Shown: piece by piece, positions 15,047-63,363 of the stretch
Layout of the letters: each line of letters opens with the position of its first letter
How positions within the stretch are numbered: position 1 is the stretch's first letter
Assembly (NCBI GenBank): GCA_964291215.2
Contig: OZ219790.1
Span: forward strand, 1,600,001 to 1,664,000
DNA: 64,000 nucleotides
Source: Alphaproteobacteria bacterium
Lineage (GTDB): Bacteria; Pseudomonadota; Alphaproteobacteria; MPNO01; UBA830
Reading direction: 5' to 3'
Made by a program: the position numbers and the translations under genes
Notes under the pieces: model-generated
The model's database searches: none
Told to the model about the DNA's origin: nothing
The model's input: only the letters and a program-made list of their open reading frames with translations

Positions 15047-17798
15047 TTCCATAGTGAAGTGCAACACATGATGGGCTGTGACCATGTGTTTTAAGACGCA
15101 TGATGTTGCGGAGCGGTAGCGGCGAGAGTTCCTGTACAAGATGAAGGGAGCTTGTTCATGTCCAAAGGCTACCGTCACCTACGAAGAGCGATGCCAGATT
15201 GAGGCGTTACAGAAAAGCGGTCTTTCACAAGGTGCGCTTGCTCGGCAGCTGGGCCGATCAACAATTTTTCGGGAGATCAAGCGTAACACCGGGGGACGGG
15301 GTTACCGTCACAAGCAGGCGCAAAGGATGGCAGAAACGCAGGGCAGCCTCGTCTGTTTCCTGGCGGTTGACGCCTCGAGTTGAAGCTCAGAAAAAGCTGC
15401 GGGAGGGCCCCGAGCAGCGGCCGTTTTCGACTGGAAGGCCGTGAACGGATCCATGATCGCCGAAGATCGGAGAGCCGGGGGTGTCTTGTGGAAGAAGCTT
15501 CGGCGGCGCGGCAAGAAGCCGAACTGGAAGGGCGGATACCATTCCGGCCGGGTCCTGTGGACATTTCCGAGCGCCCTGCGGAGGCAAAGGAACGGGTCGG
15601 CGACTGGGAGCCATCATCGGCGAAGCTCACAGTGGAGCTGTCGTGTCGCTCGTACCACGAAATACACCTTGCTGGGTGGACAGAAAGACACGGTCGGTTC
15701 GGTCATGATCCGCCTGCTCGGCTCTGGTGCGCTATTGGTCCACACAATCACGTCAGACAACGGAGTTCGCAGACCACAGGCGTGTCGCACTTGACGCAGA
15801 TTTCTTCTTCGCTTGTAACTGCTCACCCCCCTGGTTCCGGCTTGATGTCGGGGTAGAGCAACGAACGGGTTTTCGTGGAGATTTGACACTGCAGGCCGAT
15901 TCGCTTAGTGGTGGTCATCGAGAACGACGGGGACCGCCAGTGGGCTACTTTGGATCGAAGGCGACGAGCGGGCTGTGCCAGCTGCTTCCGGGGCTCCAGC
16001 CCCCGCATGATCTGTATGTGGAAACGCATCTCGGAAGCGGCGCGTTGATGAAGCGCAAGGCCGGGTGATGGCGACGGGCGGCGCGCGAGGAGTTCGAAGC
16101 GGCCAAGACCGCGGCGCTGCGTGCGGCCGGCAAGGTGCCGAAAGATGTCGATGCCGTGATCCGCGTCTTCGTCATCCTGCTCGATATCCTCATCGTCGTC
16201 CTTCTGGAGAAGACCACGCACGAGCCGGAACTCCGGTCTGCTGCCGTCACAGACGGACAAGAGCGTGCCGGGAGCAACGGCAAGGGCCCGAAGCCGAACC
16301 GGCGGATGGGCGACAACCTGCGCAAGACCATCGTCGAGGAGACGGTCGCGGCCTGCGACGCCTGCGGCGCTGGCATCGACGGCCCCATCGATCGGGAGCG
16401 CCGCACGACATCGTGTTCGAGGTCGTCGAGCGCCGCGCCGAGATCAAGGAATGCCCGAAGTGCAAGGGCCGGTTCCCCGAAAACATCCCGTGCAGTACGG
16501 CATCGGCATCCAGGCCCTCGTTATCAACCTGCTGGTCGCCCAGATGCTGTCCCTGCGCCGTGCCGTCGCGCTCATGCAGGCGATCTCCGGCATCAAGCTC
16601 TCCGAGGCAACCTGCCTCGGCTATGCTTTCACGATGTGTCATGGAAGGAGGCCGCCGTGGCGCACTTCCTGCAACGCCCGATGTCGACGATTTCGGATCA
16701 ACGGCAAGTGGCTCCATGTCGTCACCGACGGAACCCTGACGTGTAAGTTCCCGCACCGCAAGCGCGGCCGGGAGGCAAGAGATCGGCCCGTGCTACAAGG
16801 GCGTTCTGACTGCTGGGCCTCGTACATGGGCTATGACCAGTGTAGCCACCAGCTGTGCGGTAGCCACCTGCTGCGCGAACTGACCTTTGTCGTCGAGGCT
16901 ACCGCGCGACTGATGAAGAGCCTGCTCCGCGAGATCTGCCACAAGGTCAACAAGAGCGCATCCAAAACCCTGAACGAGGCCGACCTCCGGGCCGTGCGCA
17001 AGCGCTACCGTACCATCAGGGTGCCAGGGAACTGCCCGACATCCCGCCGAAAGGAAAACGTGGACGCAAGTCCGACGCGCACAACCTGCACGAACGTCTC
17101 GTGAAACACGAAAACCTGCGCTTCACAGACGACCCCGATGTCAGCTTCACCAACAATGCCGGAGAACAGAAGATCAGGATGGCAAAGCTCAAGGTGTCCG
17201 GATGCTTCCGCTCCACGCGAAAGCATGGTGCCGGGGCTCAAGCTACCTCACCTCCATGGCGGCACTCGGCTACAACCCACTCGTCGCCACCCAGATCGCC
17301 CTCGACGGAAAAGCCGCAGACATCATCAACGAGCACTACGACCAATCAGAACCCAATTAGGGGTGAGTAGATACCTTCGCTTTTCCATTCCCGGGAACGC
17401 GGCTTGAATGAGCACACCAACGGCCTGGTGCGGGAGTACTTCCCGAAGGGCACGGACTTTCGCGCGACATGCAACGAAGATGTTCAGAAGGTGCAGGATC
17501 GGCTCAACACTCGGAAAGTCATGGGATCGCCGACGGAGGTAATCTTGAAGTGAAACCGCCCTGACCATCTGCGTTCCGCAGCCGCAACGTGCAGCAGGGT
17601 CCATGCCGCGCGACGGCGAAATAGTGGCTTGAAGCCGACAAAGGCGTTGCATAAGCTCGATGTTGAAGGAACTGAAGCTGTTCCCAGGCGGAATCGAGAG
17701 GGGCAGAGGGGAAAAATTTGCACAACATCCGGCCCTCATCTCCGTTCGGGCTACGCCCTCACTGCGATGAGGGCCGGATGTTGCACTTCAGACTGGAA
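15047..17798 (+). mobile_element. Degenerate IS30-family element interrupted by IS66-B copy 1
   Basis: TIRs TTCCAtagTGAAGTGCAACA (15047) and TGTTGCACTTCAgacTGGAA (ends 17798); fragments YEERCQI, REIKRN, GDWE, TITSDNG, ERGLNEHTNGLVREYFPKGTDF. Confidence 0.85.
15815..17374 (+). mobile_element. IS66-family element type B, copy 1 (truncated MTase plus degenerate transposase)
   Basis: Ends GTAACTGCTCACCCC / GGGGTGAGTAGATAC; 8-bp TSD CTTCGCTT; HQLCGSHLLREL and FTNNAGEQKIRMAK motifs. Confidence 0.92.
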
Positions 17799-17871
17799 GT
17801 GGGGATTTAAAAATCTCCTCGCACCAACCCGCGCCCCCGCAACACCCAGATGCTGTCTTGAAAAACCAAAC

Positions 17872-19370
17872 GTATCTACTCACCCCTAGTTGGGTTCTGA
17901 TTGGCCATAGTGCTCGTTGATGATGTCTGCGGCTTTTCCGTCGAGGGCGATCTGGGTGGCGACGAGTGGGTTGTAGCCGAGTGCCGCCATGGAGGTGAGG
18001 TAGCTTGGCACCATGCTTTTGCGTGGAGCGGAAGCATCCGGACACCTTGAGCTTGACCTTTGCCATCCTGATCTTCTGTTCTCCAGCATTGTTGGTGAAG
18101 CTGACGTCGGGGTTGTCTATGAAGCGCAGGTTTTCGTGTTTCACGAGACGTTCGTGCAGGTTGTGCGCGTCGGACTTGCGTCCATGTTTTCCTTTCGTCG
18201 GGATATCGGGCAGTTCCCTGGCGCCCTGATGGTGCGGTAGCGCTTGCGCCCGGCGTCGTTCAGGGTCTTGGATGCGCTCTTGTTGACCTTGTGGCAGGGA
18301 GCAGGCTCTTCATAAGTCGCGCGGTAGCCTCGACGACAAAGGTCAGTTCGCGCAGCAGGTGGCTACCGCACAGCTGGTGGCTACACTGGCCCATGTACGA
18401 GGCCCAGGACGCCCTTGTAGCACGGGCCGATCTCTTGCCCGCGCTTGCGGTGCGGGAACTTGCACGTCAGGGTCCCACGACATGAAGCCACTTGCTGTTG
18501 ATCCGGTCTCGTCGACATCGGGCGTTGCAGGAGGTGCGCCACGGCGGCCTCCTCCCATGACGCATCGTGAAAGCATAGCCGAGGCCTCGGAGAGCTTGAT
18601 GCCGGAGATCGCCTGCACGAGCGCGACGGCGCAGGGACAGCATCTGGGCGACCAGCAGGTTGATGACGAGGGCCTGAATGCCGTACTGCACGGGATGTTG
18701 TCGGGGAACCGGCCCTTGGTCCGGGCCTTGCACTTCGGGCATTCCTTGATCTCGGCGCGGCGCTCGACAACCTCGAACACGATGTCATAGAGGACGCGGC
18801 GCTCCTGATCGACGGGGCCGTCGATGTCGGCGCCGCAGGCGTCGCAGGCCGCGACCGTTTCCTCGACGATGGTCTTGCGCAGGTTGTCGCCCATCTGCCG
18901 GTTCGGCTTCGGGCCCTTGCCGTTGCTTCCGGCACGCTCTTGTCCGTCTGTGACGGCGGCAGACCGGAGTTCCGGCTCGTGCGTGGTCTTCTCCAGAAGG
19001 ACGACGATGAGGATGTCGAGCAGGAGGACGCGGATCACGGCCTCTTCCGCCACCTTGCCGGCAGCGCCGCGGTCTTGGCCGCTTCGAACTCCTCGCGCGC
19101 CGCGTTGACCGTCGCCATCACCCGGCCTTGCGCTTCATCAGCGCGCCGCCTCCGAGATGCGTTTCCACATACAGATCATGCGGGGGCTGGAGCCCCGGAA
19201 GCAGCTGGCACAGCCCGCTCGTCGCCTTCGATCCAAAGTAGCCCACTGGCGGTCCCCGTCGTTCTCGATGACCACCACTAAGCGAATCGGCATGCAGTGT
19301 CAAATCTCCACGAAAACCCGTTCGTTGCTCTACCCCGACATCAAGCCGAAACCAGGGGGTGAGCAGTTAC
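17872..19370 (-). mobile_element. IS66-family element type B, copy 2
   Basis: Same ends as copy 1, inverted; 8-bp TSD AACCAAAC; sits in a fragment homologous to 29190-29260. Confidence 0.92.
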
Positions 19371-19423
19371 AACCAAACAAAATTTAGCGTGAGATCGTTC
19401 TGTCGTCCGCCAGCGACCGCATG

Positions 19424-19617
19424 CACGACGATCCCATGCTAATTCGGAGACGCGAAATCCGAATGCGTTGGGGCTCGGCTCATCACAGATCGCCTTCTTG
19501 ATCGCAATTTTCGTGCCAAAAAGGCCCCATCAAGCCTTGGCGGCACGATTGCAGCGCGACGCAAACTGAAAAAAATCTCGCCAGTCGTCGCCGGATTAGC
19601 AGCGTGGGATCACCGTG
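19424..19617. mobile_element. 194-bp MITE, copy 1
   Basis: TIRs CACGACGATCCCATGCTAAT / ATTAGCAGCGTGGGATCACCGTG; perfect 9-bp TSD GACCGCATG; second copy at 49345-49537. Confidence 0.85.
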
Positions 19618-19682
19618 GACCGCATGACACCGCGCTGCCGCAACGCTATGATTCAGGCGTAACGACAAACAGGGCCTGTTCC

Positions 19683-20546
19683 ATGAGTCCAGTTGTTTTC
19701 TGCGCATTCGACGACACGACCGGGACCGCATGCTACGTGGTCAGCGACCCCGCAACCGCCCGTGCCGCGATCATCGACGCGGTCCTCGACTTCGATCCGG
19801 TTTCGGGACGTACCGGAAACGTCACCGTCGAACGTTTGCTCGCCCATGTCAGCCACCGTGGCCTGACGGTCGAATGGGTCCTCGACACCCACCTTCATGC
19901 CGACCACCTTTCCGCCGCCGCGCTCCTGGGAGAAAGGTGCGGTTCAAGAACCGGAATGGGCCGCGGCCTGATCGAGGTCCGACAGAACCTCGCGCCGATG
20001 TTCGGTATCGCCGACGAAGCGGCGGACGATTCCCCGACCTGCGACGAGCTGTTCGAGGACGGCAGCACGTTTATGATCGGCACACTCGAATGCCAGGTGC
20101 TGACTACGCCGGGCCACACGCCCTCCTGCGTTACCTATGTCGTCGGCGATGCATGTTTTGTCGGCGATGTCCTGCTGATGCCGGATTCGGGCACTGCACG
20201 CTGCGACTTTCCCGGTGGCAGCGCCACGCAGCTTTTTGCCTCCGTGCAGAAGATCTTCGAGCTTCCGGACGCGACGCGCATGTTCGTCGGCCATGACTAC
20301 GGCGCGAACGGTCGTCGCGACATCGCTTGGGAGACGAGCGTCGGCGAGCAGCGCGACAGCAACATCCATGTCAGCGGCGGCACCCTCGAACACGACTTCA
20401 TCGAGATGCGGCGCGCGCGGGACGAGACCCTGGGCCTTCCGCGTCTCTTCTTCCCGGCCATCCAGGTCAACATGCGGGCCGGGAATCTGCCGCCGCCTGA
20501 TTCCGGCGGCGTAGCCCACATCCGCATTCCGCTCAACCGCATATGA
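19683..20546 (+). CDS. MBL-fold metallo-hydrolase, persulfide dioxygenase (ETHE1/Blh)-like
   Basis: THLHADHLS, TPGHTPSC, GTARCDFPGG and FVGHDY motifs. Confidence 0.88.
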   Translation: MSPVVFCAFDDTTGTACYVVSDPATARAAIIDAVLDFDPVSGRTGNVTVERLLAHVSHRGLTVEWVLDTHLHADHLSAAALLGERCGSRTGMGRGLIEVRQNLAPMFGIADEAADDSPTCDELFEDGSTFMIGTLECQVLTTPGHTPSCVTYVVGDACFVGDVLLMPDSGTARCDFPGGSATQLFASVQKIFELPDATRMFVGHDYGANGRRDIAWETSVGEQRDSNIHVSGGTLEHDFIEMRRARDETLGLPRLFFPAIQVNMRAGNLPPPDSGGVAHIRIPLNRI

Positions 20547-20571
20547 TCCGCCCGATCGAGGACAAGCCACC

Positions 20572-21498
20572 ATGACCACCGGACTATACACCCACCCGAG
20601 TTCGCTGGATCACGACACGAGCCCCGGACACCCGGAGCGGATTGAGCGGATCGCGACCGTCTACACGACCCTCGACGACGCCAGCTTCGCCGCGCTCCGC
20701 CGCAGGGAAGCGCCACCATCGTCCGTCGGCGAGCTCGGTCGGGTGCATCGGGACGACTATGTCACCCATACCCTTGAGCGGATTCCCGCTGCCGGCTTCT
20801 CCCGGCTCGATCCCGACACGGTGGTCTCGTCCGGTTCCGGCACTGCCGCCCTCCATGCCGCTGGCGCGATGATTGCCGCCGTGGACGACGTAGTCGCCGG
20901 CAACGCCGACAATGCATTCTGCGCGGTGCGGCCGCCGGGTCATCACGCCGAGGCCAGCCGCGGCATGGGGTTCTGCCTATTCAACAACGTAGCCGTGGGC
21001 GCGATGCATGCCCGTCACGTCCACGGCCTGCAGCGCGTAGCAATTGTCGATTTCGACGTGCATCACGGAAACGGCACGCAGGCGATGTTCGAGAGTGATC
21101 CGGACACGCTGTTCGCATCGACGCACCAGTACCCGCACTATCCGGGCACCGGAGCCGCCGGAGAGACCGGCGTGGGCAATGTCTTCAACGCACCGCTCGC
21201 CGCCGGCTCGGGCGGCGCCGAGTTCAGGGCGGCAATGGAAGAACGGATCCTGCCGGCGCTGCGCGGCTTCGCGCCTGCCATCGTCTTCGTTTCGGCCGGG
21301 TTCGACGCCCACTCGCGCGACCCGCTGGCGTCACTGAATTTCGAGGAAGCGGATTATGAATGGGCGACTCGCAAACTCATGGAGATCGCGGACGAGTTCT
21401 CCAGAGAGCGCCTCATATCAACCCTCGAAGGAGGCTACGACCTCGAGGCCCTGAGCAACAGTGTGCAGGCGCATGTCGGCGCGCTGATGTCCTCTTAG
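20572..21498 (+). CDS. Histone deacetylase family protein (AcuC/AphA-like)
   Basis: HPERIER, RPPGHHA, GFCLFNN, DFDVHHGNGTQ, SAGFDAH and LEGGY motifs. Confidence 0.95.
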   Translation: MTTGLYTHPSSLDHDTSPGHPERIERIATVYTTLDDASFAALRRREAPPSSVGELGRVHRDDYVTHTLERIPAAGFSRLDPDTVVSSGSGTAALHAAGAMIAAVDDVVAGNADNAFCAVRPPGHHAEASRGMGFCLFNNVAVGAMHARHVHGLQRVAIVDFDVHHGNGTQAMFESDPDTLFASTHQYPHYPGTGAAGETGVGNVFNAPLAAGSGGAEFRAAMEERILPALRGFAPAIVFVSAGFDAHSRDPLASLNFEEADYEWATRKLMEIADEFSRERLISTLEGGYDLEALSNSVQAHVGALMSS

Positions 21499-21626
21499 GA
21501 CGGCGCCAGCGGACCGGTCTGGACGGCGTGCCGGGGGCGGGCGGCCGAAAACTGACCCGAAAACGCCGGAGCGGCCCCTATGTCCGCCGTGTCGGATCCG
21601 GGCGTGACAGCCGGCACGCAGGACCG

Positions 21627-23723
21627 TCACACAGGCGCGGGAACGCCGACAAGATCCACGACCTTCGGAACCTGGCGGAGCGCCCAGTCGAGCTCCCGGC
21701 GCTCGACCTCGCCGCACTGACGCGGCGCGACCAGGTTGGAGAGCGGGATGCCCGCCTCCAGATCACGGAGTTGCTGGCGGAGAACCACTCTGAGCAGAAT
21801 TTCGTGCGCCGCGATCAGGTCACCGACAAGGTCTTCCGGCACGCTTCCCGCCTCAGCTGCAGCGCGTAGACGCGCCTCGGTCGAACGGGCGGCAATGCCG
21901 TTGGAAATGGCCAGCACCCGAGCCGCCGAGAACACCGGCATGAGGCCGGCCATCTTGAGGTCGATCCGCCCCTCCTTAAGCCGCAAGCGGCCGAACCAGC
22001 CATGCGGCTTGGCGAACTGCGCGGCATTCCCGGCCAGCAGTCGCAGGAAGGGACGGCTGGCGCGCGCCATCGTCCGCGCCTCGGCACCCAGCGCCTCGGC
22101 AAGGGAATCGTCGCCGTGAACCGGCGCGGCATCGAAGAAGATATCAGCATTGAGAATGTCTTCGGGCCGGGTACGCGCCAGCCATATTTCCACGGTGGCA
22201 CGCCAGCCATCGAGATCGTGTCTCCAGGCAGCGTTCGACGCCATGATGCCACCCGTACAGTAGCGGACACCGGCCTGGTCGAGGATATCGGCGACGCGCC
22301 GTCCAAGCGCCTCGCACCAGCGGTCGGCGTCGGAACCCGGTGACCCTTCGCGAAACACGATTGCGTTGTCCTGATCCATTGCCAGCAGGCTCTCGCCGCG
22401 CCCGCCGGAACCCAGGACCAGCATCGCATAGGGTGGCGCCTCCGTTGCGGCATGCTCGCTTTCGGCGATCTCGCATGCCCGGCGGGTAAGCGCACGCAGT
22501 TCGCGCGAGATGACCGCGGCGACAAGTCGAGCATCCACCTCCTCGTCGACCAGAGCGCGCGCGACGCCCGCGAGTTCGGACCAGACACGGCCGAGTTCCG
22601 GCGCATCGTTCGCAGATTCGATCTCGTGGCCGAGGGAGACCGAGTCGTCGGCCCGCCCGCGCAGCAGATCGCGGGCGCTCAGTACGCCGACGACAGTCCC
22701 ATCTGCGTCAACGACACCGAGGTGCCGGAAGCCGCCGGTCTTCATCGACACCAGCGCCCGGTACACCAACTCCGAGTGTCCGACAGTCCTCAGCGAACTC
22801 GAGCAGACATCGCCGACCGGATCCGCAAGCACCTGCGCGCCGCCGCGACGCAGGGCGCGCAGCACGTCGCGTTCGGTGATGATCCCGTATGGCTCTTCCG
22901 CCTCCGGTGTGACGATGAGCGAACCCACCCTTTCGTCGATCATGCGCGCGAGCGCGTCGGCAAGCGGCAGGTCGCGCACCGCGAAAACCGGCGGCGCGGT
23001 CATCAATTCGGCGACGCGATGACGGTACGGAAAGCTGTCTATGCGCGCGTACTCGGCCGGGGCGGATGACGGAATCTCACGCACCCCAAGGCCGGCGGCC
23101 TGGCTTCGCTCGCACGACCGGCGGCAGATCCTTTCCGCCTCGGCAAGAGTGGAGACGCCGCGCCCGCGCAGCTTCGGAAGAAGCGCGAGAAAGATCCGGG
23201 CCGTCAGCACCGCATCCGCAAGCGCCCGGTGCCGTCCCTCGACCGGCACGCCCAGCCAGCCAGCCAGGGTCTCGAGCGACCAGTCCGGCAGGTCCGAACC
23301 GACCGCCTGAGCCAGATCGCGCGTATCCAGTGTGCGCGGCGCCTGCCATGAGAGTCCGTGCCGCCGATGCTCGGCTTCGAGGATCGCGAGGTCGAACCCC
23401 ACCGAATGGCCGAGAAACACGGCCGGTCCGGCCCACTCCGCGAAACTCCGCATGCCGGCAACAAATCCCGGCGCGCCCGCAACTTCGCCGTCCGTAATTC
23501 CGTGAATGGCGGTGGAAGCGGGCGGAATCGGCTCTCCGGGATCGATCAGGTGGCAATTGCTGTCGCTGTCGTCGATCCTACCCGCCGCGAGCCGCACGGC
23601 ACCGATCTCGATCACGCGGTCCCGCGTCGTATCGAGGCCCGTGGTCTCGGTATCAAAAACGACGACCGTAAGCGACGCCAGTGGAAGGGCCGAAAGGCCC
23701 GGCGGAGACGGCAGGAAGCTCAT
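21627..23723 (-). CDS. Fusion: DEDDh 3'-5' exonuclease + CBS pair + DUF294 nucleotidyltransferase-like domain
   Basis: FDTETTG, HSVGFD, HRALADA; GIITERDV; LGSGGRGESLLAMDQDNA; IDLKMAG; ATGA overlap with upstream gene. Confidence 0.88.
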   Translation of the reverse strand: MSFLPSPPGLSALPLASLTVVVFDTETTGLDTTRDRVIEIGAVRLAAGRIDDSDSNCHLIDPGEPIPPASTAIHGITDGEVAGAPGFVAGMRSFAEWAGPAVFLGHSVGFDLAILEAEHRRHGLSWQAPRTLDTRDLAQAVGSDLPDWSLETLAGWLGVPVEGRHRALADAVLTARIFLALLPKLRGRGVSTLAEAERICRRSCERSQAAGLGVREIPSSAPAEYARIDSFPYRHRVAELMTAPPVFAVRDLPLADALARMIDERVGSLIVTPEAEEPYGIITERDVLRALRRGGAQVLADPVGDVCSSSLRTVGHSELVYRALVSMKTGGFRHLGVVDADGTVVGVLSARDLLRGRADDSVSLGHEIESANDAPELGRVWSELAGVARALVDEEVDARLVAAVISRELRALTRRACEIAESEHAATEAPPYAMLVLGSGGRGESLLAMDQDNAIVFREGSPGSDADRWCEALGRRVADILDQAGVRYCTGGIMASNAAWRHDLDGWRATVEIWLARTRPEDILNADIFFDAAPVHGDDSLAEALGAEARTMARASRPFLRLLAGNAAQFAKPHGWFGRLRLKEGRIDLKMAGLMPVFSAARVLAISNGIAARSTEARLRAAAEAGSVPEDLVGDLIAAHEILLRVVLRQQLRDLEAGIPLSNLVAPRQCGEVERRELDWALRQVPKVVDLVGVPAPV

Positions 23724-24376
23724 TCTGCCGAGCGCGCCGTGCGCCGCCACGCCCGGCAGACAGCGGGCCCGTCGACCCGCTTGCGGAACTGGGTTCGGAC
23801 GTCGCGCCAGCGAAAACGGATCGAATTGCTGACGATCCCGCTGTCCAACTGCTTGAACTCGTCGATGACCGGCGCGAACCGGACAAGGTCGGCGGCGCTG
23901 CCGGCAAAGGCATTCTCGCCGACGGCCGCGTCATGCCAGCGGATCCCTTCCACGCGTCCGCGGAAGTCCGCCGCCATACTCGCCGCGACCTCGTCGGGAT
24001 CCTCCCCTTCGAGAACGCGTCGCATGGCGCCGGCGAAGCAGAGGCGCGCGAGTGCCGCCGCATCATCGGCATCCAGACCGCCGTGTTCGCGAGTTACCGC
24101 TACCGTGAACACAGTCAGGTCGGCGAGCGAGGAGACGAAGACCCTGATCGCCGCCAGCCTGATGGCGCCGGCGAAGACTTCATCCTGAAACAGGTCGCGG
24201 TACCGGGTTCCCATGCGGGTCTTCAGATAGCCGTAGAGCGCGGTCTGCGCGACATAGGCGGACCGCGTCTGCACGAAATGCGTGAGCGTCTCGACGGAAT
24301 CGATCGGGCTCCGATCGAAGCGTTCGGCGAGCACCTTCAGCGGTCCGGGCAACAGGGCGGCAACGCGTTGAAGCAT
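23720..24376 (-). CDS. Hypothetical protein translationally coupled to the DUF294 fusion
   Basis: Coding-like ORF (FVQTRSAYVAQTALYGYLKTRMG); stop overlaps the next ATG. Confidence 0.7.
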   Translation of the reverse strand: MLQRVAALLPGPLKVLAERFDRSPIDSVETLTHFVQTRSAYVAQTALYGYLKTRMGTRYRDLFQDEVFAGAIRLAAIRVFVSSLADLTVFTVAVTREHGGLDADDAAALARLCFAGAMRRVLEGEDPDEVAASMAADFRGRVEGIRWHDAAVGENAFAGSAADLVRFAPVIDEFKQLDSGIVSNSIRFRWRDVRTQFRKRVDGPAVCRAWRRTARSAE

Positions 24377-25100
24377 CGGAAGACCCCATGGTCAGGCAAT
24401 CGGGATGGAAGAGCGGGCAGCCAAACCGCGCCCGCCTCCGTCGGCTGACGCCGGCCACACCGCGAACCGGTGCCAACGATGCCAGATGGTAATGGCGAAG
24501 AAAAGAGATCGGATCGCAGCCTCCGCTTGAGCTCCGTGCAGACCGGTTTCAAGGTCCGAACCGTTCGTCATCCCACCTCGAAAACGCAGAGCCAGACCGA
24601 ATCGATACCGTCTTCGCCGGCGAGGCCAGCCGATCGCTGGAGTTTGCCGACGCCCGTCGCAGGCGGGCCGCACGCGCAACATATTCGTTCGCGACACCGG
24701 ACCGGCGGCCTAGACCACGACCCGGAACCACTTGCACGAACTCGGGACATCCAGATAATAATTTCATGTATTATATGAATCAACATGTTGAGCATGATTT
24801 TTGCCGGTTTGACGGACACATCATCTTGCTGCCAGAGATGCCGCCGCCACCCGAGAATATGTCGGGCCCCGGCATTCGCGCCAGCCTGATTCGCAACCGT
24901 GTCATCGCCGCGGATGTCGAGCGCGCCTAGCCCGTGCAATCCGGCGGGTCGCGGACCGAAAGAAATTCTGTCTTGCATTTGTTAACGCAAGATCGTTAGA
25001 TATGGCTTGTCGGAGAAGTCGGCACTCCTGCAGACTATGAGACCTACACGGAGGCTGGTCGTTCGGCAAGCAAGATAATTTCAAGGCGAGGATGGGTTTA

Positions 25101-25361
25101 ATGTCTCAGAATAAATCGGAGAAGCGCAGACTCCATTGGGAGAAGACCCGGAACCTGACGATCTTGGTTCTGGTCATCTGGTTCATCTTCTCCTTCGTTG
25201 TTCATTGGTTTGCCAAGGGATTGAACGAAATGTCGTTCATCGGCTTCCCCTTCGGCTACTACCTGGCGGTCCAAGGCTCGCTCATCATTTTCGTGCTGCT
25301 GATCTTCTACCAGAACTGGCGGCAGGACAAGATCGACGACGAGTCCGGACTCGGCGAGTGA
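25101..25361 (+). CDS. DUF4212 small membrane subunit of solute symporter
   Basis: Two TM helices, GFPFGYYLAVQGS; directly upstream of the SSS gene. Confidence 0.85.
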   Translation: MSQNKSEKRRLHWEKTRNLTILVLVIWFIFSFVVHWFAKGLNEMSFIGFPFGYYLAVQGSLIIFVLLIFYQNWRQDKIDDESGLGE

Positions 25362-25374
25362 AGGGAGCGGCACC

Positions 25375-27189: not shown

Positions 27190-27210
27190 CTGAAGTTTCC
27201 CGTTGCGTTT

Positions 27211-28010: not shown

Positions 28011-28047
28011 GGCGGCGTCCGGGAATCGGCCGGACACCATTGGCGCT

Positions 28048-49889: not shown

Positions 49890-50161
49890 TTAGTGTGAAC
49901 TTCCTAGGCTACCTCCACCAAATCCTGATCCTGGCTGAATGTCACGGCCACATCGAGAGCGCCGTTGCGCGCGATTCGCACCATGTCGAGACCAATCCGA
50001 AGGTCTGTTTCCTTCTCGCGCTGTGCCGGCACACCATGCGTCGTACCGTCCGGAAGCGGGACCCGCTCGGAGCGCGGTTTCCGGGAGGTCACGAGAATCC
50101 CGACGCGGCTCATTGCGGTCAGGTACCGCGCCCGGCACGCCGGATCTTTCCTGGCGTCGGG
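49890..50161 (-). pseudogene. NYN-domain (PIN-like) protein fragment
   Basis: REKETDLRIGLDMV...DVAVTFSQDQDL resembles the NYN EKGVD...SGDSD motifs. Confidence 0.6.
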
Positions 50162-50685
50162 GTATCTCCTCACCCCTCCGCAGAGGCGGGTTTGGCGTTG
50201 TGCATCTTGATCATGTCGGCGGCGTTTCCGGCGAGTGCGATCTGGATGGCAACGAGCGGGCTGTAGCCGAGTGCGGCCATGGAGGTGAGATAGCTTGAGC
50301 TTCGGCACCAAGCCTCGGCTAGAGCGGGGTTCGGAAGCATCTGGAGACCTTGACCTTTGCCATCCGGATTTTCTGCTCGCCGGTGTTGTTGGTGAAGCTG
50401 ATGTTCGGGTCGCTCATGAAGCACAGGACGAACTCTTCATGCCTTGCGAGACGCTCCTGGAGGTTGTGCGCGTTCGCGATCGGTCCGCGTTTTCCTTTCT
50501 GTCGGGGCGGGATTTCAGGCAGTTCCTTCGCCCCCCGGGTCAGGGTGGTCCGGTAGCGCTTGCGCACGGCGGTCGGCCTCGTTCAGGGTCCTGGATGCGC
50601 TCTTGTCAACCCTGTGGCAGGCAGCAGTTTCTTCATCACGCGTGCCCGGCGGTAGCCGTTGGCGTCGACGATGACGGCCGGTTCC
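50162..50685 (-). mobile_element. 3' part of an IS66-B-related element
   Basis: End GTATCTCCTCACCCC; AHNLQERL and FTNNTGEQKIRMAKVK motifs. Confidence 0.85.
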
Positions 50686-54900: not shown

Positions 54901-55625
54901 CCCGCTGAAGAATCTTGTCCTCCAGCGAGGCAAGCGGTCGTTGCCCTCCATCCTCCTTGGGTATGTAGACCCTGGAGGCGCCCGGTACGCACCCCTGTGC
55001 ACACGGGCGTGCAGGTCAACCAGACGGTCTTCCAAACCCTCCGCGTACGCTTGCCACACAACGCCCCGCCGCCGCGTCCTTCCTCAAGGAATGGAACGCA
55101 TCGTGCAGAATGTCGACCGTCACGTGGTGGAGTAAAGACGCTCTTCCGGGTTCCTCTTCGCTACCTGCGTTCAGCCGCCTGTGACCCCCGCTTCTGCGCG
55201 CGGCGCGGGCCAACCGCATTGCCCTTCCCTCAAACAACTCCGCAGGCTCCGAAGAACCCTTGTTCGCCGCCTTCAACGGTACTATGGCCGAATCTGACTT
55301 CTCGTTCATCATCGGTTTACGGATTAGTTCCTTTCCTCTGCGGCCCCTCCACGACAGAGGGGCAAGACCTCCCAGGTCCCTGCTTCGGCCATGGTTCTCA
55401 GACCCCGCGGAGCCCCCGTCTGCCTCACCAATACGGCACACAGGGTGTTGCCTTCGGCCACGACCTCGGCACTCCGGTTTCACAGAATCTCGTGGCTCAA
55501 TAGCCCGGCCTGCCGCTCACCAACGCTTCGCCTCACGACGCATGGTTCACGGAGAAAGTGGTGGTTAGCCTCTCTTCCTGCCGGGACTTGCACCCGGCAA
55601 CATTCCACCAGTTAGCCTGGCGCAC
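51980..55625 (-). mobile_element. Group II intron 2 nested in intron 1 (close homolog), RT split by a recombinase element
   Basis: 5' GTGCGCCAGG at 55625; DV GAGCCGGATGCG...CGCACGTCCGG and 3' end CCTACCGCGAT at 51980; GTPQG, VRYADDF and FDFLG motifs. Confidence 0.88.
52651..54651 (-). mobile_element. Large serine recombinase element (degenerate) with terminal inverted repeats
   Basis: 24-bp IR ACGCC(C/T)CGAACGCAAAAGGTAACT; TAC direct repeats on both flanks; fragments EDDGYTG, IAEYERAQILERSRRGK, IPVPAIVSEETF, ERQRIVRLLVKEI. Confidence 0.82.
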
Positions 55626-55921
55626 CCAGCAACTCCGCAGGCTCCGAAGAACCCTTGTTCGCCGCCTTCGACGGTACCATGGCCGAATCTGACTTCTCGT
55701 TCATCATCGGGTTACGGAATAGTCCCTTTCCTCTGCGGCCCCTCTACGACAGTGGGGCAATTGAAAGACCTCCCGGGTCCCTACTTCGGCGTGTGCCATG
55801 GTTCTCGGACCCCGCGGAGCACCTGCTCGCCTCACCATCGCGGCTCGCAGGGTGTTGCCTTCGGCTTGGCGGACCATCTCGATACTCCGGTTTGACCTGA
55901 ATCTCGTGGCTCGATAGCCCG

Positions 55922-56761
55922 GTCGGGTAGGCCGCTGGCGCGCGCATCCTTAGGCGAAGGCTTTATCCGTCACCGCTCTTTCGATTGCGGGCGGGTTCGC
56001 AGAATCGCCATAGACCACGTTTCCAGCAGCCCCCCTAAAATTCCGTACGTCCGGTTTTCCCGGTTCAAGCATCAGGCACCCACTTGGAGTTCGGTGCGGA
56101 GCCTTCCCACGCCATGGTCAAGGCTGACCCAACCATACCCACGGCATCTCCGAGCGTTTGCTCCGTCCTTCGGCCTTGCAGTCTGTCGGTCGGTGCCGGT
56201 CTCTGCGTACCGGCTTGACCTGCCGCATAGGCCACCTGAGCCCTGAGGTCCTCGTTCGGGACGGGTTGTGTTGTCCCGCCCGTAAACGCTTAGGCGACCT
56301 CATCCGCCAGTCAGGAGGACTCCGCGTCCTTTCCCGTTTCCCGGTTATAGACGCGGTCCTTGACGGGTCACTTCATCCTGTCTGTCCTCCTCACCTTCCG
56401 GTCTTTCACTGCTGATCTGTCCCGGATTGCCGCCGTCTGTACCCCGGGGAACCCGATGCGTGTTCCTCCGTTCTTCCGCATCGACACTGGCCATCGGGTA
56501 GCAACCTTGGCGTTCACCGTCTATCCCACAAATCAGCTTCGTGTGGGTGGGGAATTTCGGGGCTTCCCGTTCGCTTTCGCCCTCCGGTTTGCTCGCCGCC
56601 CTGGCTGACCGAACCGGCTGGACACTGCGTTCCAGCCAGCCCACAACGGCTTCCTACGTCCCAGCTCGCTGGTCCAGGGTCGCCCCTGAACCAATGCTAC
56701 GGCGCCAAACTGAGAATTGCGGGACTTTCACCCGCAAGATCAGCAGCTAGACTCGCTGCAC
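55922..56761 (-). mobile_element. Group II intron 3 (ORF-less or ORF-deleted, 840 nt) nested in domain I of intron 1
   Basis: 5' GTGCAG at 56761; DV-like CGGACGTACGGAATTTTAGGGGGG and 3' CCTACCCGAC at 55922; flanks rejoin to GAGCGGCAGGC|CGGGCTA as in intron 2. Confidence 0.8.
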
Positions 56762-56879
56762 GCCTGCCGCTCCCCAACGCTTCGCCTCGCGACGCATGGT
56801 TCACGGAGGAAGTGGTGGTTAGCCTTTCTTCCTGCCGGGACTTTCACCCGGCGACATTCTGCCAGTTAGCCTGACGCAC

Positions 56880-57188
56880 CCACCGGATAGTCGCACCCGA
56901 ACCCGTCCAGCGCTCCCGGTCGATCCCGATAGAGCGCCGGCGCCTTGCGCTTCATCAGCGCGCCGCCTCCCGGATGCGTTTCCACATACAGACCATGCGG
57001 AGGCTGGAGCCCCGGAAGCAGCTGGCACAGCCCGCTCGTCGCCTTCGATCCAAAGTAGCCCACTGGCGGTCCCCATCGTTCTCAATGACCGTCACTAAAC
57101 GAATCGGGCTGCAGTGTCAAATCTCCACAAAAACCCGTTCGTTGCTCTACCCCGACATCAAGCCGGAACCAGGGGGGTGAACAGTTAC
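56880..57188 (-). mobile_element. IS66-B left part with a longer Dam-like adenine MTase fragment, interrupted by intron 1
   Basis: End GTAACTGTTCACCCC; GYFGSKATSGLCQ...PPH..YVETHPGGGALMKRKAPAL...FGCDYPV. Confidence 0.8.
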
Positions 57189-57245
57189 CAATCACCAAAA
57201 TAAACCTCTGCGGAGATCGTCATCACCGCACGAACGAACGCTTAC
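57189..57245 (-). mobile_element. Solo end of IS66 type A
   Basis: Homologous to 5070-5125, ending TCACCGCACGAACGAACGCTTAC. Confidence 0.8.
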
Positions 57246-57372
57246 GTCGCAATCGTGCCGACGAGAAAAGAGCCGTAGCGGCTGTGATATGCTGGCGAAC
57301 CAGCATTCCCGACTTGTCCGGCGAGCAGGCGGGGTCCCGGGGATTTCGCATCTGGGTGTTCCGGAAGTTCAC

Positions 57373-59355
57373 ATGGTTTCTCGGACGACTGATATCGACG
57401 ACGCCCTGATCCGGGGCATTGCCGCATCTGCCTTCGATACCGCAAGAGACGACGCCGAAGCGGTCTTGGCATCTGTCCTGCCGGATCTCGACGCCGTGCA
57501 ATTACGCCTCCGAATCGAGACCGTACGGAACACCAACGCCGGCGCACCACCGAGCCGCGCGTCGGAAAGGGAGTTGGCGACATTTCGCCAGCTGTTGGCC
57601 GAGCGGAAACTCGACGGCTTTCTCGTTCCGGTGGCAGACGAATATCAGGGGGAGTTCATCCCGCCCAGCGCACAACGCTTGAGATGGCTCAGCGGTTTCA
57701 GCGGATCCGCCGGGCTCGCCGTCGTCCTTGTGGACAGGGCCGCGATCTTCGTTGACGGCAGATACGAGTTGCAGGCCATTGACCAGGTCGATGCCGATAT
57801 GTTTGATTTGCATCATCTGACGCGGTCCCCGCCGCGCGACTGGCTTGCCACCCACGCCAGATCCGGCGCGCGGGTAGGCTTCGATCCGTGGATTCACACA
57901 CCAAACGGCCTCCGCGGCCTCAGCGAAGGATGCCGAAAGGCAGGCGCCGAACTTGTGCCCGCGGTGCCCAATCCCGTCGATACGGTCTGGACTGACCGTC
58001 CGCCGGAGCCAGTCGGCCCGGTGGCGCCGCACGAAATCCGCCACGCCGGCGTCAGCGCCGAGGACAAGCGCCGGCAAATTGCCCGGAAGATCGCCGGACA
58101 AGGGCACAAAGCAGCGGTGATCAGCGCGCCGCCCTCCGTCGCGTGGCTGCTCAATGTACGCGGATCAGACATCGCCAACACGCCACTCCCGCTGAGCCGG
58201 GCCATCATCTATGCCGATGGCCGCGTCGACTGGTTCATCGATCCGCGCAAGGTCGGCGATACCGTCCGCGCAGCGCTTGGTCCGAAAGTCGTGGTCCGGG
58301 CTCCGGACGGATTCGGCCAAACGCTTGACCGTCTTGGCAGTGAAGGCGCCTCCGTCCTGGCCGATCCCGCGACGACACCAGAATGGATCGTGCGGCGGCT
58401 TGCCGACGCGGGCGTTGCGTCCTCGACCAGCAGCGACCCCTGCGAGGCGGCCAAGGCGACAAAGAACCCGGTAGAGCTTGACGGCGCCCGCGCCTGCCAC
58501 ATCCGCGACGGCGCCGCGCTGTGCGAATTCCTCGCATGGCTGTCCCGAAAAGCGCCGGGCGGCGGGGTGACGGAGCTTTCGGCAGCGGAACGCCTGACAG
58601 AATTGCGGCGGCGCGATGCGACCTACAGGGGTCCGAGTTTCGACACCATATCGGGGTCGGGACCCAACGGCGCGATCGTGCACTACCGGGTGTCGGAAAG
58701 GACGGATCGGACCATTGCTGATGGCGACATGTACCTTGTCGATTCGGGCGCCCAGTATCCCGACGGCACCACCGACGTCACGCGGACCGTCTTCATCTCC
58801 GGAGATGCCGCCACACGGCCCTCCGACGAGGCCAAGGACCGCTTCACGCGGGTGCTAAAGGGCCATATAGCCATTGCCACCGCCCGGTTCCCGGAGGGCA
58901 CCACCGGCGGACGGCTCGACACCCTGGCCAGGGCCTCACTGTGGCAGGCGGGCCTCGACTACGATCACGGCACCGGCCACGGGGTCGGAAGCTATCTCGG
59001 CGTTCACGAGGGGCCCCAGCGCATTTCGTCGCGCCAGGATTCGACGGCCCTCGAGCCCGGGATGATCCTCTCCAACGAGCCCGGCTACTATCGGCCCGAC
59101 GCGTACGGCATTCGCATCGAGAATCTCGTCGTCGTGCAGAAATGGGAAGGTGGCGGAGAGGACGGCCGGAACATGCTGTGTTTCGAGACTCTCACTCTTG
59201 CACCGATCGACCGCTTCCTCATCGAATCCGCGCTGCTGACGCCCGAGGAACGGAACTGGCTGAACGGTTACCACATATGGGTACGCAAAACGCTCGCCCC
59301 AAACCTGTCGCCAACGGCAAGACACTGGCTCGAAGAAGTCACGGCCCCGATCTGA
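57373..59355 (+). CDS. pepP: Xaa-Pro aminopeptidase P (M24B)
   Basis: RLRWLSGFSGSAG, DSGAQYPDGTTDVTRT, HGTGHGVG, VHEGP, SNEPGYY and GIRIEN motifs; start may lie at 57289. Confidence 0.93.
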   Translation: MVSRTTDIDDALIRGIAASAFDTARDDAEAVLASVLPDLDAVQLRLRIETVRNTNAGAPPSRASERELATFRQLLAERKLDGFLVPVADEYQGEFIPPSAQRLRWLSGFSGSAGLAVVLVDRAAIFVDGRYELQAIDQVDADMFDLHHLTRSPPRDWLATHARSGARVGFDPWIHTPNGLRGLSEGCRKAGAELVPAVPNPVDTVWTDRPPEPVGPVAPHEIRHAGVSAEDKRRQIARKIAGQGHKAAVISAPPSVAWLLNVRGSDIANTPLPLSRAIIYADGRVDWFIDPRKVGDTVRAALGPKVVVRAPDGFGQTLDRLGSEGASVLADPATTPEWIVRRLADAGVASSTSSDPCEAAKATKNPVELDGARACHIRDGAALCEFLAWLSRKAPGGGVTELSAAERLTELRRRDATYRGPSFDTISGSGPNGAIVHYRVSERTDRTIADGDMYLVDSGAQYPDGTTDVTRTVFISGDAATRPSDEAKDRFTRVLKGHIAIATARFPEGTTGGRLDTLARASLWQAGLDYDHGTGHGVGSYLGVHEGPQRISSRQDSTALEPGMILSNEPGYYRPDAYGIRIENLVVVQKWEGGGEDGRNMLCFETLTLAPIDRFLIESALLTPEERNWLNGYHIWVRKTLAPNLSPTARHWLEEVTAPI

Positions 59356-59639
59356 TCGAGGGTTTCCGCCTGTCCTGGACCTTGGCAACCAGATTCGACC
59401 GCCTGCAGGGACCGTGTGCAGGCGGAGAATGCCGGCGGCCAGTCCATTACCTCCCGGTCCGCCCGCAAAAGCCCAGCGACCGGCTTCGTCCCGCCGGCAC
59501 GGTAGCGGCGCCATCTGATCGCGGAGCCTGCAGGACAGGTTCGTCCATACTCAATGCTGCACGTAACTGCTCACCCCCTGGTTCCGGCTTGATGTCGAGG
59601 TAGGCAACGAACGGGTTTTCGTGGAGATTTGACACTGTA

Positions 59640-59990
59640 CCCAAGTTGGCACTTTTTGCGTCAGTTGAAGGGGAAATTTATGCGCCAGCCCCGCTCCATA
59701 TAGTATATGTTGGTGCTTCATGTGCTATACTCACTGTATCTGCGGTTTCCTGCCCAAGATGGCCGGTGTAATGCTAGGATATTGCCAATTCGCTCGACCC
59801 CGCCGCCAAACCCGGTATATCTGGAGCCTCGTCAACACAAAAGCCTCCAGCCAACATGTTCATCAGGGCAACCAAAACCCACAGCACCGCAGACGGCAAA
59901 CCCGTCCGCAGCCACCGGCTCGTGCTTTCTCAACGCATCGGCGACAAGGTCAGACAGCGCACCCTGCTCAATCTCGGCACCGACTATCCG
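59640..59990 (+). mobile_element. IS1634-family left end and transposase N-terminus
   Basis: CCCAAGTTGGCAC end; MFIRATKTH...HRLVLSQRIGDKVRQRTLLNLG from 59856. Confidence 0.8.
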
Positions 59991-62733
59991 GTGGGGGGGG
60001 GCTAGCCCCCCAGTGAAACGCGGCGCCATCGTGCTATCCCATGGAGCTGTAAACATTCATGGAGAGTAACTGCTCACCCCCTGGTTCCGGCTTGATGTCG
60101 GGGTAGAGCAACAAACGGGGTTTCGTGGAGATTTGACACTGCAGGCCGATTCGTTTAGTGGTGGTCATCGAGAACGATGGGGACCGCCAGTGGGCTACTT
60201 TGGATCGAAGGCGACGAGCGGGCTGTGCCAGCTGCTTCCGGGGCTCCAGCCCCCGCATGATCTGTATGTGGAAACGCATCTCGGAGGCGGCGCGCTGATG
60301 AAGCGCAAGGCCGGGTGATGGCGACGGGCGGCGCGCGAGGAGTTCGAAGCGGCCAAGACCGCGGCGCTGCCGGCAAGGTGGCGGAAGAGGCCGTGATCCG
60401 CGTCTTCGTCATCCTGCTCGACATCATCATCGTCGTCCTTCTGGAGAAGACCACGCACGAGCCGGAACTCCGGTCTGCCGCCGTCACAGACGGACAAGAG
60501 CGTGCCGGGAGCAAGGGCCCGAAGCCGAACCGGCAGATGGGCGACAACCTGCGCAAGACCATCGTCGAGGAGACGGTCGCGGCCTGCGACGCCTGCGGCG
60601 CCGACATCGACGGCCCCGTCGATCGGGAGCGCCGCGTCCTCTATGACATCGTGTTCGAGGTAGTCGAGCGCCGCACCGAGATCAAGAAATGCCCGAAGTG
60701 CAAGGCCCGGGGCCGGTTCCCCGACAACATCCCGTGCAGTACGGCATCGGCATTCAGGCCCTCGTCATCAACCTACTGGTCGCCCAAATGCTGTCCCTGC
60801 GCCGTGCCGTCGCGTTCGTGCAGGCGATCTCCGGCATCAAGCTCTCCGAGGCCTCGGCTATGCTTTCACGATGCGTCATGGGAGGAGGCCGCCGTGGCGC
60901 ACCTCCTGCAACGCCCGATGTCGACGATTTCGGATCAACAGTAAGTGGCTTCATGTCGTGGGACCCTGACGTGCAAGTTCCCGCACCGCAAGCGCGGCCG
61001 GGAGGCAAGAGATCGGCATCATCCCGTGCTACAAGGGCGTCCTGGGCCTCGTACATGGGCTATAACCAGTGTAGCCACCAGTTGTGCGGCAGCCACCTGC
61101 TGCGCGAACTGACCTTTGTTGTCGAGGCTACCGCGCGACTGATGAAGAGCCTGCTCCGCGAGGTCTGCCACAAGGTCAACAAAAGCGCATCCAAGACCCT
61201 GAACGACGCCGGGCCGTGCGCAAGCGCTACCGCACTATCCTCACTCAGGGCGCCAAGGAACTGCCCGACATCCCGCCGCCGCCGAAAGGAAAACGTGGAC
61301 GCAAGTCCGACGCGCACAACCTGCACGAACGTCTCGTGAAACACGAAAACCTGCGCTTCACAGACGACCCCAACGTCAGCTTCACCAACAATGCCGGAGA
61401 ACAGAAAATCAGGATGGCAAAGTTCAAGGTGTCCGGATGCTTCCGCTCCACGCAAAAGCATGGTGCCGGAGCTCAAGCTACCTCACCTCCATGGCCGCAC
61501 TCGGCTACAACCCACTCGTCGCCACCCAGATCGCCCTCGACGGAAAAGCCGCAGACATCATCAACGAGCACTATGAATCAGAACCCAACAAGGGGTGAGT
61601 AGATACCATGGAGAAAGCGAATGGACCTGCGACACACTACGACGATCGGGACTGTTTTGGAACATCTGATCGCAAACGGAGCAACGGATCTGGGGCGGAT
61701 CTTTGGTCAGCTCTTCGAGCTTGCGATGCAAATCGAGCGCGAGCAGCACTTGAAAGCGGGCCACCGGACACCGGAGCGACAGGGCTATGCCAACGGCTAT
61801 AAGCCCAAACGGATCGACACCCCCACTGTTACCGTTCAGGTGCCAAAGACGGCCGGTCACGGGGACGACCCGTCCCCAGTCGCTTGAACGCGGCCAGCGA
61901 TCTTCTCGCGCCGTGGCCGTAGCTGAGATGTACATCAAGGGTGTTTCCACGAGGCAGGATGTAATGCGCGAGTTCGGGAGCCTGTCCTCTTCTCAGGTCA
62001 GCCGGGCCACCAGGTTGCTCGATGAAGAACTCGCCGCGCAACCGGCCCCTGATGAAATACCTGGATGCGCGCTATGAAAAAGCCCGCCATGACGGCGTTG
62101 TGCGCGATGTTGCAGTGCTCTCGGCCATCGGAATAGGGGCTGCAGGCACGTTCTGGGGCTCTCTGTGGCGCTCTCCGAGGCCGAGGTCCATTGGAAAGCC
62201 TTCCTGGAAAGCTTGCAAACCCTGCATGGTACGACCTTCATCGTCTCGGATGCCGGGTTGAAAGCGGCACGACGCGCGGTGCTGGGCGCGGCGATGTGGC
62301 AGCGCTGCCAGTTCCACCTGGCGCAAAACGCCGTGCACCGAACAACGGCATCAGGAAACGTATCGGAAAACAGCTCGGAGCCACGCCTCCTCACTCCAAA
62401 CCGCCGAGGCTGAACCGGGCACCCTCGTGGCCAGCTATCGCGACAAGCATCCAGGCTTCCTGGCTGGAAAACAATGCGGGGCTCGCTGTCTTCACCTTGC
62501 CCGATGCTCACCACAAGCGCATGCGAACCTCGAACGGCATCGAGCGACCGATCCGGCAAGAGCTCAAGCGGCGCACCTCCAAAGTCAGGGTCTTTCCGAA
62601 CCTCGCCTCGTTGGAGCGCTTCTCAACCGCGGTCCTCATCGACGAAAAATGGGAAACCGAAACCAAGGCATACATCAAATGGGAGCAGCTCGATCAGCTT
62701 CACGACAATTTCCAGACATCAGGTTGCGTAATC
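59991..62733 (+). mobile_element. Degenerate IS256-family element, copy 2 (left end lost; interrupted by IS66-B copy 3)
   Basis: Closely homologous to 9900-11064; same right end. Confidence 0.9.
60066..61606 (+). mobile_element. IS66-family element type B, copy 3
   Basis: Both ends present; 8-bp TSD CATGGAGA. Confidence 0.92.
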
Positions 62734-62735
62734 AA

Positions 62736-63363
62736 ATTTGACACTGCAGGCCGATTCGTTTAGTGGTGGTAATCGAGAACGACGGGGACCGCCAGTGGGC
62801 TACTTTGGATCGAAGGCGACGAGCGGGCTGTGCCAGCTGCTTCCGGGGCTCCAGCCCCCGCATGATCTGTATGTGGAAATGCATCCGGGAGGTGGCGCGC
62901 TGATGAAGCGCAAGGCCGGGTGATGGCGACGGGCGGCGCGCGAGGAGTTCGAAGCGGCCAAGACCGCGGCGCTGCCGGCAAGGTGGCGGAAGAAGCCGTG
63001 ATCCGCGTCCTCGTCATCCTGCTCGACATCCTCATCGTCGTCCTTCTGGAGAAGACTACGCACGAGCCGGAACTCCGGTCTACCGCCGTCACAGACGGAC
63101 AAGAGCGTGCCGGGAGCAAGGGCCCGAAGCCGAACCGGCAGATGGGCGACAACCTGCGCAAGACCATCGTCGAGCGCCGCGTCGACGCCGAGATCAAGGA
63201 ATGCCCGAAGTGCAAGGGCCGGTTCCCCGACAACATCCCGTGCAGTACGGCGTCGGCATCCAGGCCCTCGTCATCAACCTGCTGGTCGCCCAAATGCTGT
63301 CCCTGCGCCGTCGCGCTCGTGCAGGCGATCTCCGGCATCAAGCTCTCCGAGGCAACCTGCCTC
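62736..63363 (+). mobile_element. IS66-B copy 4 (continuation of the left end at 59563-59637; 3'-truncated)
   Basis: Resumes at ATTTGACACTG, where the 59563 end stops. Confidence 0.85.

Follow-up and report, generated by a model that had tools for sequence, protein, structure and literature searches.

Deletions of 5 to 7 nucleotides concentrated in the repeated DNA of an alphaproteobacterial genome

Introduction

Repeat-induced point mutation (RIP), known in Neurospora and other fungi, is a homology-dependent damage that strikes any repeats, inactivates transposons, and largely spares single-copy DNA. In bacteria, the loss of insertion sequences (IS) is ascribed to purifying selection, large deletions, and slow decay, and we know of no homology-sensing mutagenic defense like fungal RIP. 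Here, we analyzed a 64-kb stretch of DNA (the window) from G000, the genome of a sponge-associated bacterium that by its 16S gene is an alphaproteobacterium, together with the genome-wide copies of an IS66-family element, IS66-B. These copies, like nearly every multicopy family in G000, are riddled with deletions of 5 to 7 nucleotides (nt). What the process strikes and what it leads to resemble RIP, yet it does not belong to RIP: it is bacterial, its product is a 5- to 7-nt deletion and not a C-to-T change, its breakpoints are common to copies, and it leaves a weak background in single-copy DNA. The C-to-T changes of RIP are made by a dedicated methyltransferase-like protein; no dedicated gene was identified for the process in G000.

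Three further bodies of work describe parts of such a process. The Escherichia coli topA R35P mutator, the closest known parallel to the de novo step, produces 1- to 7-bp deletions at hot spots, independently of tandem repeats and with no rise in point mutations (PMC6954433). That mutator is described as acting genome-wide and as including losses of 1 to 4 nt, whereas the deletions studied here are of 5 to 7 nt and ~100-fold concentrated in repeats. In large-loop repair, loops beyond the range of MutS can be removed, and loop-directed removal favors the short allele, but the cited part of that work concerns in vitro substrates and yeast extracts with loops of 8 to 216 nt (PMC2504288). Indels of bacterial pseudogenes are described, in the excerpted source, as following a power law with an excess of 3n sizes and a deletion bias (PMC6054270), and Wolbachia and other symbionts as holding many dead IS copies with exchange between copies (PMC3205602, in part). 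Unlike such published pseudogene and IS decay, here 4-nt losses are nearly absent, 5- to 7-nt losses dominate, and the deletions are decoupled from flanking single nucleotide polymorphisms (SNPs). The literature searched, which misses most subscription journals, yielded no bacterial defense of the RIP kind, no size-restricted, repeat-concentrated bacterial deletion process and no case of large-loop repair shaping all the repeats of a bacterial genome or limited to 5 to 7 nt.

Results

IS66-B has the hallmarks of the IS66 family, namely, a DDE_Tnp_IS66 transposase, inverted ends that start with GTAA, and an 8-bp target site duplication (TSD), and model NF033517 scored 241 bits on an intact relative of 88% identity. 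The G000 genome (6.15 Mb in 2 contigs, 99.3% complete, ~34% repeated DNA) contains 210 IS66-B matches of at least 300 bp, or about 200 copies, and 80 of 118 end-paired copies are flanked by perfect 8-bp TSDs. We aligned 112 full copies to a union reference (1 of 113 was dropped as nonhomologous inside). The copies differ by 154 distinct deletions, of which 15, 48, and 23 are 5, 6, and 7 nt long, respectively, and none is 4 nt long; a few calls of 1 to 2 nt are reference artifacts. A second size group, at 11 to 14 and 17 to 18 nt, looks like sums of 5- to 7-nt units. Each copy carries 17 to 46 deletions (median, 35), of which ~25 are 5 to 7 nt, and 12 to 41 substitutions; summed over the 112 copies, the 5- to 7-nt deletions number 2,807, or ~18 per kb. 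The long form is the ancestral one, because 46 of the 48 long alleles could be aligned gap-free with intact copies from a different genome, G041 (OZ220465.1), and the changes are therefore deletions. The same comparison exposed two further deletions that are fixed in G000. Element ends often escape, with densities of 0.5 and 0.2 per kb at those of IS66-B. Common sites are spaced more evenly than random (coefficient of variation, 0.52 versus 0.80), which fits either of the two main mechanisms weighed below. An apparent mutual exclusion of deletions less than 15 nt apart was disregarded, since neighboring gaps are merged by the aligner, and "shifted" rare deletions are indistinguishable from a common deletion plus a neighboring SNP.

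The same size peak was found in nearly every multicopy family of G000. When all families are pooled, distinct clean indels of 1 to 9 nt number 1,286, and 916 of them are 5 to 7 nt long, with 17 at 4 nt and 69 at 8 nt; these totals, the 154 of IS66-B, and the counts for duplicated genes that follow are distinct counts, and some of the pairwise gap counts given below tally common events repeatedly. Many IS families are affected (IS66, IS256, IS630-type, and ISAzo13, by Pfam), as are the RNA of group II introns and host genes present in duplicate. In duplicated genes other than transposases (fn3 repeat proteins, autotransporters, DUF499, helicases), gaps of 6 nt number 96, and those of 3, 5, and 7 nt number 38, 13, and 15, respectively, an excess that is expected if selection keeps in-frame losses. 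Junction microhomology is absent from 252 of the 916 deletions and is at most 1 nt in 473. Microhomology of at least 3 nt is commoner than chance and thus aids deletion, but with 252 junctions lacking it, the direct repeats that slippage or microhomology-mediated deletion would require are dispensable. Deep k-mer unitigs of three samples, all from one study, carry 5- and 6-nt indels in the window region; one run, X1, may be the source of the assembly, which it matches without a difference over 20 kb, and another, X2, represents a strain ~0.7% divergent. Runs with related DNA are labeled sponge or marine metagenome, and none of the listed runs holding related DNA is an RNA run.

The window contains four IS66-B copies: copy 1 (positions 15815 to 17374, plus strand), copy 2 (17872 to 19370, minus strand), copy 3 (60066 to 61606, plus strand), and copy 4, a composite (59563 to 63937, plus strand). 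Copy 1 is of the single-ORF IS66 type, its transposase is wrecked by many 5- to 7-nt deletions, and a Pfam DDE_Tnp_IS66 match spans a fragment at 16265 to 17101. A sequence-only reading of the window had proposed that the deletions across these copies cannot be placed on any tree. Every retained allele that it listed was found in its place: ACGGTCAACGCG occurs only at 19112 (minus strand), CTGCGTGCGGCCGG only at 16117, and CGCCGCGTCGACGCC only at 63175, while AGCAACGGCAAG is kept by two copies, at 16273 and 18927 (minus strand), and GAGGCAACCTGCCTC by two, at 16604 and 63349. The four-copy alignment also contains the described site with three states (full, minus 6, and minus 12 nt). Copies 1 to 3 have distinct perfect 8-bp TSDs (CTTCGCTT; GTTTGGTT, in element orientation; and CATGGAGA) and are independent insertions, as had been argued; the TSD of copy 4 is TGCTGCAC. 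The incompatibility extends genome-wide, since 61 to 89% of deletion pairs per distance bin among the 112 copies fail the four-gamete test. The 5- to 7-nt size window, the involvement of all repeat families, and the host dependence had not been stated.

Next, linkage among the IS66-B copies was measured. The SNP-SNP D′ was 0.89 at <10 nt and 0.66 at 10 to 20 nt and fell to 0.32, a decay indicating that the copies exchange short tracts. The SNP-deletion D′ was 0.37 at <10 nt and 0.28 at 10 to 20 nt, against a baseline of 0.27, and SNPs beside a common deletion were mostly not coinherited with it. The frequency spectrum of deletions is also shifted upward: of the 48 sites, 27 are deleted in more than 50% of copies, a frequency exceeded by 13 of 262 derived SNPs (polarized by G041), and singletons make up 6 of the 48 sites and 139 of the 262 SNPs. 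Rare deletions number 27; a common site is touched by 25 of them, and the remaining two have junctions that recur 5 and 20 times in the genome. Plain unbiased gene conversion is rejected because deletions are unlinked from near SNPs and skewed to high frequency. Thus, of the two causes offered by the sequence-only reading, patchwork gene conversion holds insofar as short-tract exchange exists, but in its plain form it is insufficient; recurrence at sequence-determined hotspots holds insofar as a sequence preference is real (see below), but the sites are nearly all common and frequent, not private, and this favors templated spread. Neighboring deletions co-occur at 15 to 50 nt (r, 0.33 to 0.13; background, 0.055 to 0.08), and deleted alleles are slightly less diverse within 12 nt (0.0168 versus 0.0218; P = 0.01). 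The C-to-T changes among copies show no strong dinucleotide context.

To place the deletions among relatives, sampling covered 400 kb each of G002 to G004 and ~760 kb of the 5 Mb of the sister species G001. Judged from the genomes compared, the process depends on the host. In G041, ~40 copies that are 88% identical to IS66-B are largely intact: 16 aligned loci are colinear with the long alleles, the single locus translated has a 614-codon IS66 frame, and despite a divergence of 19 substitutions per kb, the copies have only 2 gaps of 5 to 7 nt in 400 kb of pairwise alignment. No 5- to 7-nt gaps were found in G042 and G043. A weaker peak was present in G002, of the same genus (34, 98, and 10 gaps of 5, 6, and 7 nt in 94 kb), while G004 has hardly any such gaps and the sampled part of G003 is without repeats. 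G000 and G002 have shredded reverse transcriptase (RT) genes, whereas most of those in G001 and G041 to G043 are intact; the IS66 frames of G001 are also intact. A second affected host with a close IS66-B copy was sought, with 0 matches in metagenome contigs and none at an E value of 1e−40 among 25 family genomes. In G041 to G043, 32 to 63 RT matches each were seen, many of them full length, intact, and often in tandem clusters.

Single-copy DNA showed a weak form of the same bias. In a comparison of G000 with G001 (300 kb, 20,217 SNPs), 19 nontandem 5- to 7-nt segments are missing in G000 and 1 is missing in G001, while 1- to 4-nt gaps number 30 and 26. Within 355 intact genes, G000 has 20 losses of 6 nt, with 1 reverse case of 5 to 7 nt, and 3-nt losses number 8 each way. 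Single-copy noncoding DNA contains 7 deletions of 5 to 7 nt per 37 kb, and 40 broken single-copy genes contain 7 in 47 kb, though some of these genes carry 4 to 5 frameshifts of 1 to 2 nt. The single-copy density, ~0.15 to 0.2 per kb versus ~18 per kb in IS66-B, is ~100-fold lower but not zero. Since broken single-copy genes are hardly hit, neutrality alone does not cause the riddling. Strain X2 differs from the assembly by ~177 SNPs in 20 kb of single-copy DNA, with no 5- to 7-nt indels among the differences listed. At one locus, L089, compared with run X7 (~7% away), A>G (371) and T>C (227) differences exceed C>T (208) and G>A (188), a skew that suggests a possible GC-to-AT drift in the G000 lineage.

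The sequence preference of the sites was then characterized. A site model trained on other families, with microhomology among its features, predicted IS66-B sites with an area under the curve of 0.81; motif score and site frequency were unrelated (rho, 0.04). An all-against-all context test was confounded and was replaced by comparison with an IS66 family of 81 to 84% identity, in which 9 of 17 sites are at exactly the same position (expected, 1.0) and 15 of 17 overlap (null, 8.2); after removal of redundancy, exact matches are ~6 of 11. Deletion ends show a weak symmetric preference. A C at −4 of one end occurs in 188 of 252 events (141 expected), with other positions equally strong; it resembles the TopA rule given in PMC7587558. 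No strand or codon-phase asymmetry was detected in 232 oriented events, which rules out a link to transcription or translation. Hairpin context made little difference (unpaired fraction, 0.51 versus 0.54). Mismatch-directed cutting was also considered and rejected: a polymorphic site lies inside 24 of 65 deletions (21.6 expected), and NucS was not found in G000.

Other repeats in the window were examined for the same gaps. Another multicopy element (15300 to 15814), which adjoins copy 1, has 8.1 gaps of 5 to 7 nt per kb (68 matches), and its 5-nt deletion at 15552 is present in deep unitigs of three runs. An IS256 (Mutator)-like element (59638 to 62735, plus strand) splits copy 4 and contains copy 3, and its family has 5.0 such deletions per kb in the middle. 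The composite consists of an IS66 left end (59563 to 59637), a truncated body with one larger internal deletion (62736 to 63364), unrelated non-IS cargo, and a second left end, inverted, at 63937; nesting at 59563 to 63937 is thus three levels deep, with IS66 copy 3 inside the IS256-like element, which itself lies in an IS66 composite whose ends are both of the left type. Group II intron RNA domains, a noncoding repeat (55235 to 55964, minus strand), also show 5- to 7-nt gaps, at 10.1 per kb over 55235 to 55630 (77 matches), and a fragment of a diverged IS66-like relative (50161 to 50638, minus strand), 74 to 78% identical to copies 1 to 3 with gaps counted, is gapped as well. In alignments of copy 1, many genomic copies match the first 1,320 bp only.

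A young IS66 family in G000 (99.7% identical) is free of 5- to 7-nt gaps. It comprises about a dozen intact copies (e.g., G000:C2:2470771-2473170) with mosaic SNPs even here, and its 234-amino-acid passenger has a weak, below-cutoff likeness to Dam/D12 adenine methyltransferases. On reading of the translations, IS66-B copies appear to have a left-end remnant of a passenger like that one.

Discussion

The concentration of 5- to 7-nt deletions in the repeats of G000 is well supported; for its mechanism, which we infer from sequence comparison, the reading that we tentatively favor combines a low-rate, lineage-specific deletion mutator with deletion-biased loop excision between paired copies. The weak genome-wide bias toward 5- to 7-nt deletions in the G000 lineage, with its mild symmetric end preference, would supply the original events. 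Intact MutS and MutL would clear loops of up to ~4 nt and so set the lower size limit; in the cited portion of PMC2504288, bacterial mismatch repair is efficient on loops up to ~4 nt, and loop-directed removal is described in yeast extracts. MutS, MutL, and RecA are intact in G000. When copies pair and a long allele faces a short one, the 5- to 7-nt loop would be excised and the gap resealed with the short strand as a splint, a biased form of the short-tract exchange seen among the copies. Resealing on a splint would reproduce the junction exactly, on any SNP background, and always toward the shorter allele. The outcome would be a ratchet: the reading frames of transposases and introns would be wrecked, and duplicated host genes would be left with in-frame losses of 6 nt. 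By our own arithmetic, the background rate applied to the 280 kb of the family gives ~40 to 55 origins, near the ~50 to 70 sites.

Several observations weigh against templated excision. Just 9 SNP-deletion pairs lie less than 10 nt apart, and 3 of these are significantly linked. Same-site deletions in the family of 81 to 84% identity bear up to 8 differences in their 29- to 31-nt context, so templating there would need homeologous pairing despite MutS. An origin limited by pool size fits poorly with riddled low-copy elements: a 2-copy family has 11 deletions per kb, like high-copy ones, and a now single-copy IS4-like element (G000:C1:1346261-1348199) has 15 gaps of 5 to 7 nt in 1.9 kb relative to its nearest (73%) relative. 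Among 14 close copies of family F17, deletion differences are more numerous than those at SNPs. Templated excision does not account for the abrupt upper limit at 7 to 8 nt, and loop-nuclease candidates (NucS, endonuclease VII, S1/P1, EndoV, UvdE, and RecT) were not found in G000.

A less probable but still serious alternative is closer to RIP, with pairing triggering a nuclease- or topoisomerase-type cut-and-rejoin reaction by which 5 to 7 nt are lost de novo at preferred sites; identical junctions would recur independently in each copy, and ordinary short-tract conversion would only shuffle them. It would account for deletions unlinked from SNPs 3 to 10 nt away, for the shared sites of the diverged family, for the prediction of sites across families, for the riddling of low-copy repeats, and for the often spared element ends. 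The repeat-independent hot-spot deletions of topA R35P and the C at −4 (PMC6954433 and PMC7587558, each in part) also point its way. However, a weak motif should give many low-rate sites, and almost no private deletions at new sites were seen; the motif score does not follow site frequency, and deletions co-occur at 15 to 50 nt. A topA mutator was rejected as the cause, since the TopA of G000 looks ordinary: it keeps the conserved GHVR and ARR motifs, in which R35 and R168 are expected to lie (by putative residue mapping), and is 95% identical, in a comparison confined to the region before the C-terminal domains, to the TopA of G001, a genome with intact IS66 and RT frames. Templated excision and pairing-triggered recurrence thus both remain, and both are homology dependent; we favor templated excision.

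The other explanations fare worse. A hot-spot deletion mutator acting genome-wide and visible only in neutral DNA, with nothing special about repeats, would agree with the 19:1 bias in single-copy DNA and the 20 in-frame losses in intact genes, but it is largely refuted by the 7 deletions in 47 kb of broken single-copy genes, and neither the absence of 5- to 7-nt indels among the listed differences of X2 nor the lack of strand and codon-phase bias fits it; we consider it improbable. Equally hard to credit is a single origin for each deletion, with copies mobilized in trans and then scrambled by ordinary unbiased conversion. The many perfect TSDs, the decay of SNP linkage with distance, and the presence of an intact young IS66 family are in keeping with it, and Cordaux in 2009 reportedly described gene conversion among dead IS copies in Wolbachia; but it predicts deletion-SNP linkage and an SNP-like frequency spectrum, both of which fail, and it does not explain the size window. 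Least probable is an artifact of assembly or polishing in repeats. X1 may be the very source of the assembly, but the indels occur in deep unitigs of three samples, one from the ~0.7% divergent strain; the ~40 copies of G041 are nearly gap-free and the young G000 family is clean; and the mainly in-frame gaps of host-gene duplicates (96 of 6 nt versus 13 and 15) indicate selection in vivo.

A search for the responsible enzyme covered affected and unaffected genomes. MutS, MutL, RecJ, RNase HII, RecA, XseA, and TopA are found in both alike, and among the genes searched, none sets G000 and G002 apart from the other genomes. Ku, Piwi, topoisomerase IB, and ATP-dependent ligase were not found in G000. 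An NucS_C-like domain scored above the cutoff at G002:C1:2513338-2513547, within the genus in G002 only. Each of G000 to G004 has one type IA topoisomerase match, and G029, G041, and G043 have a second one. CRISPR self-targeting was rejected because 0 of 112 spacers match full length, as was Argonaute self-targeting with end joining, for which no Ku, Piwi, or ATP-dependent ligase was found in a search that did not extend to short Argonautes lacking a Piwi match. The CRISPR arrays (G000:C1:574173-581216 and C2:2068487-2069571, with 96 and 16 spacers) have repeats without deletions and adjoin Cas3/Cmr-like and Cas9-like genes, so named by reading of translations.

A bolder proposal, which we regard as a real possibility but less likely than not, is that G000, and more weakly G002, has a bacterial counterpart of RIP, a dedicated and recently gained host system that would recognize repeats by their pairing, punch 5- to 7-nt deletions into them, and so silence almost every family of IS and group II introns; no sign of it was seen in the sister species or among the other genomes that host this IS. 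In G000, deletions per copy outnumber substitutions, and the frames of nearly all older mobile elements are destroyed, while other hosts of these elements keep theirs intact. Templated excision would be a previously undescribed means by which a bacterium wrecks its own transposable elements. Because a sister species 7% away has intact IS66 and RT frames, the cause should be mappable by gene content. Even a nonadaptive reading, in which deletion-biased microconversion escapes mismatch repair, would amount to a new evolutionary force on repeats and paralogues, and would call for caution in dating IS copies or building their trees. At G000:C1:796000-824000, clustered duplicated fn3-repeat and helicase genes show in-frame 6-nt deletions between paralogues, and there the process may diversify host-interaction proteins.

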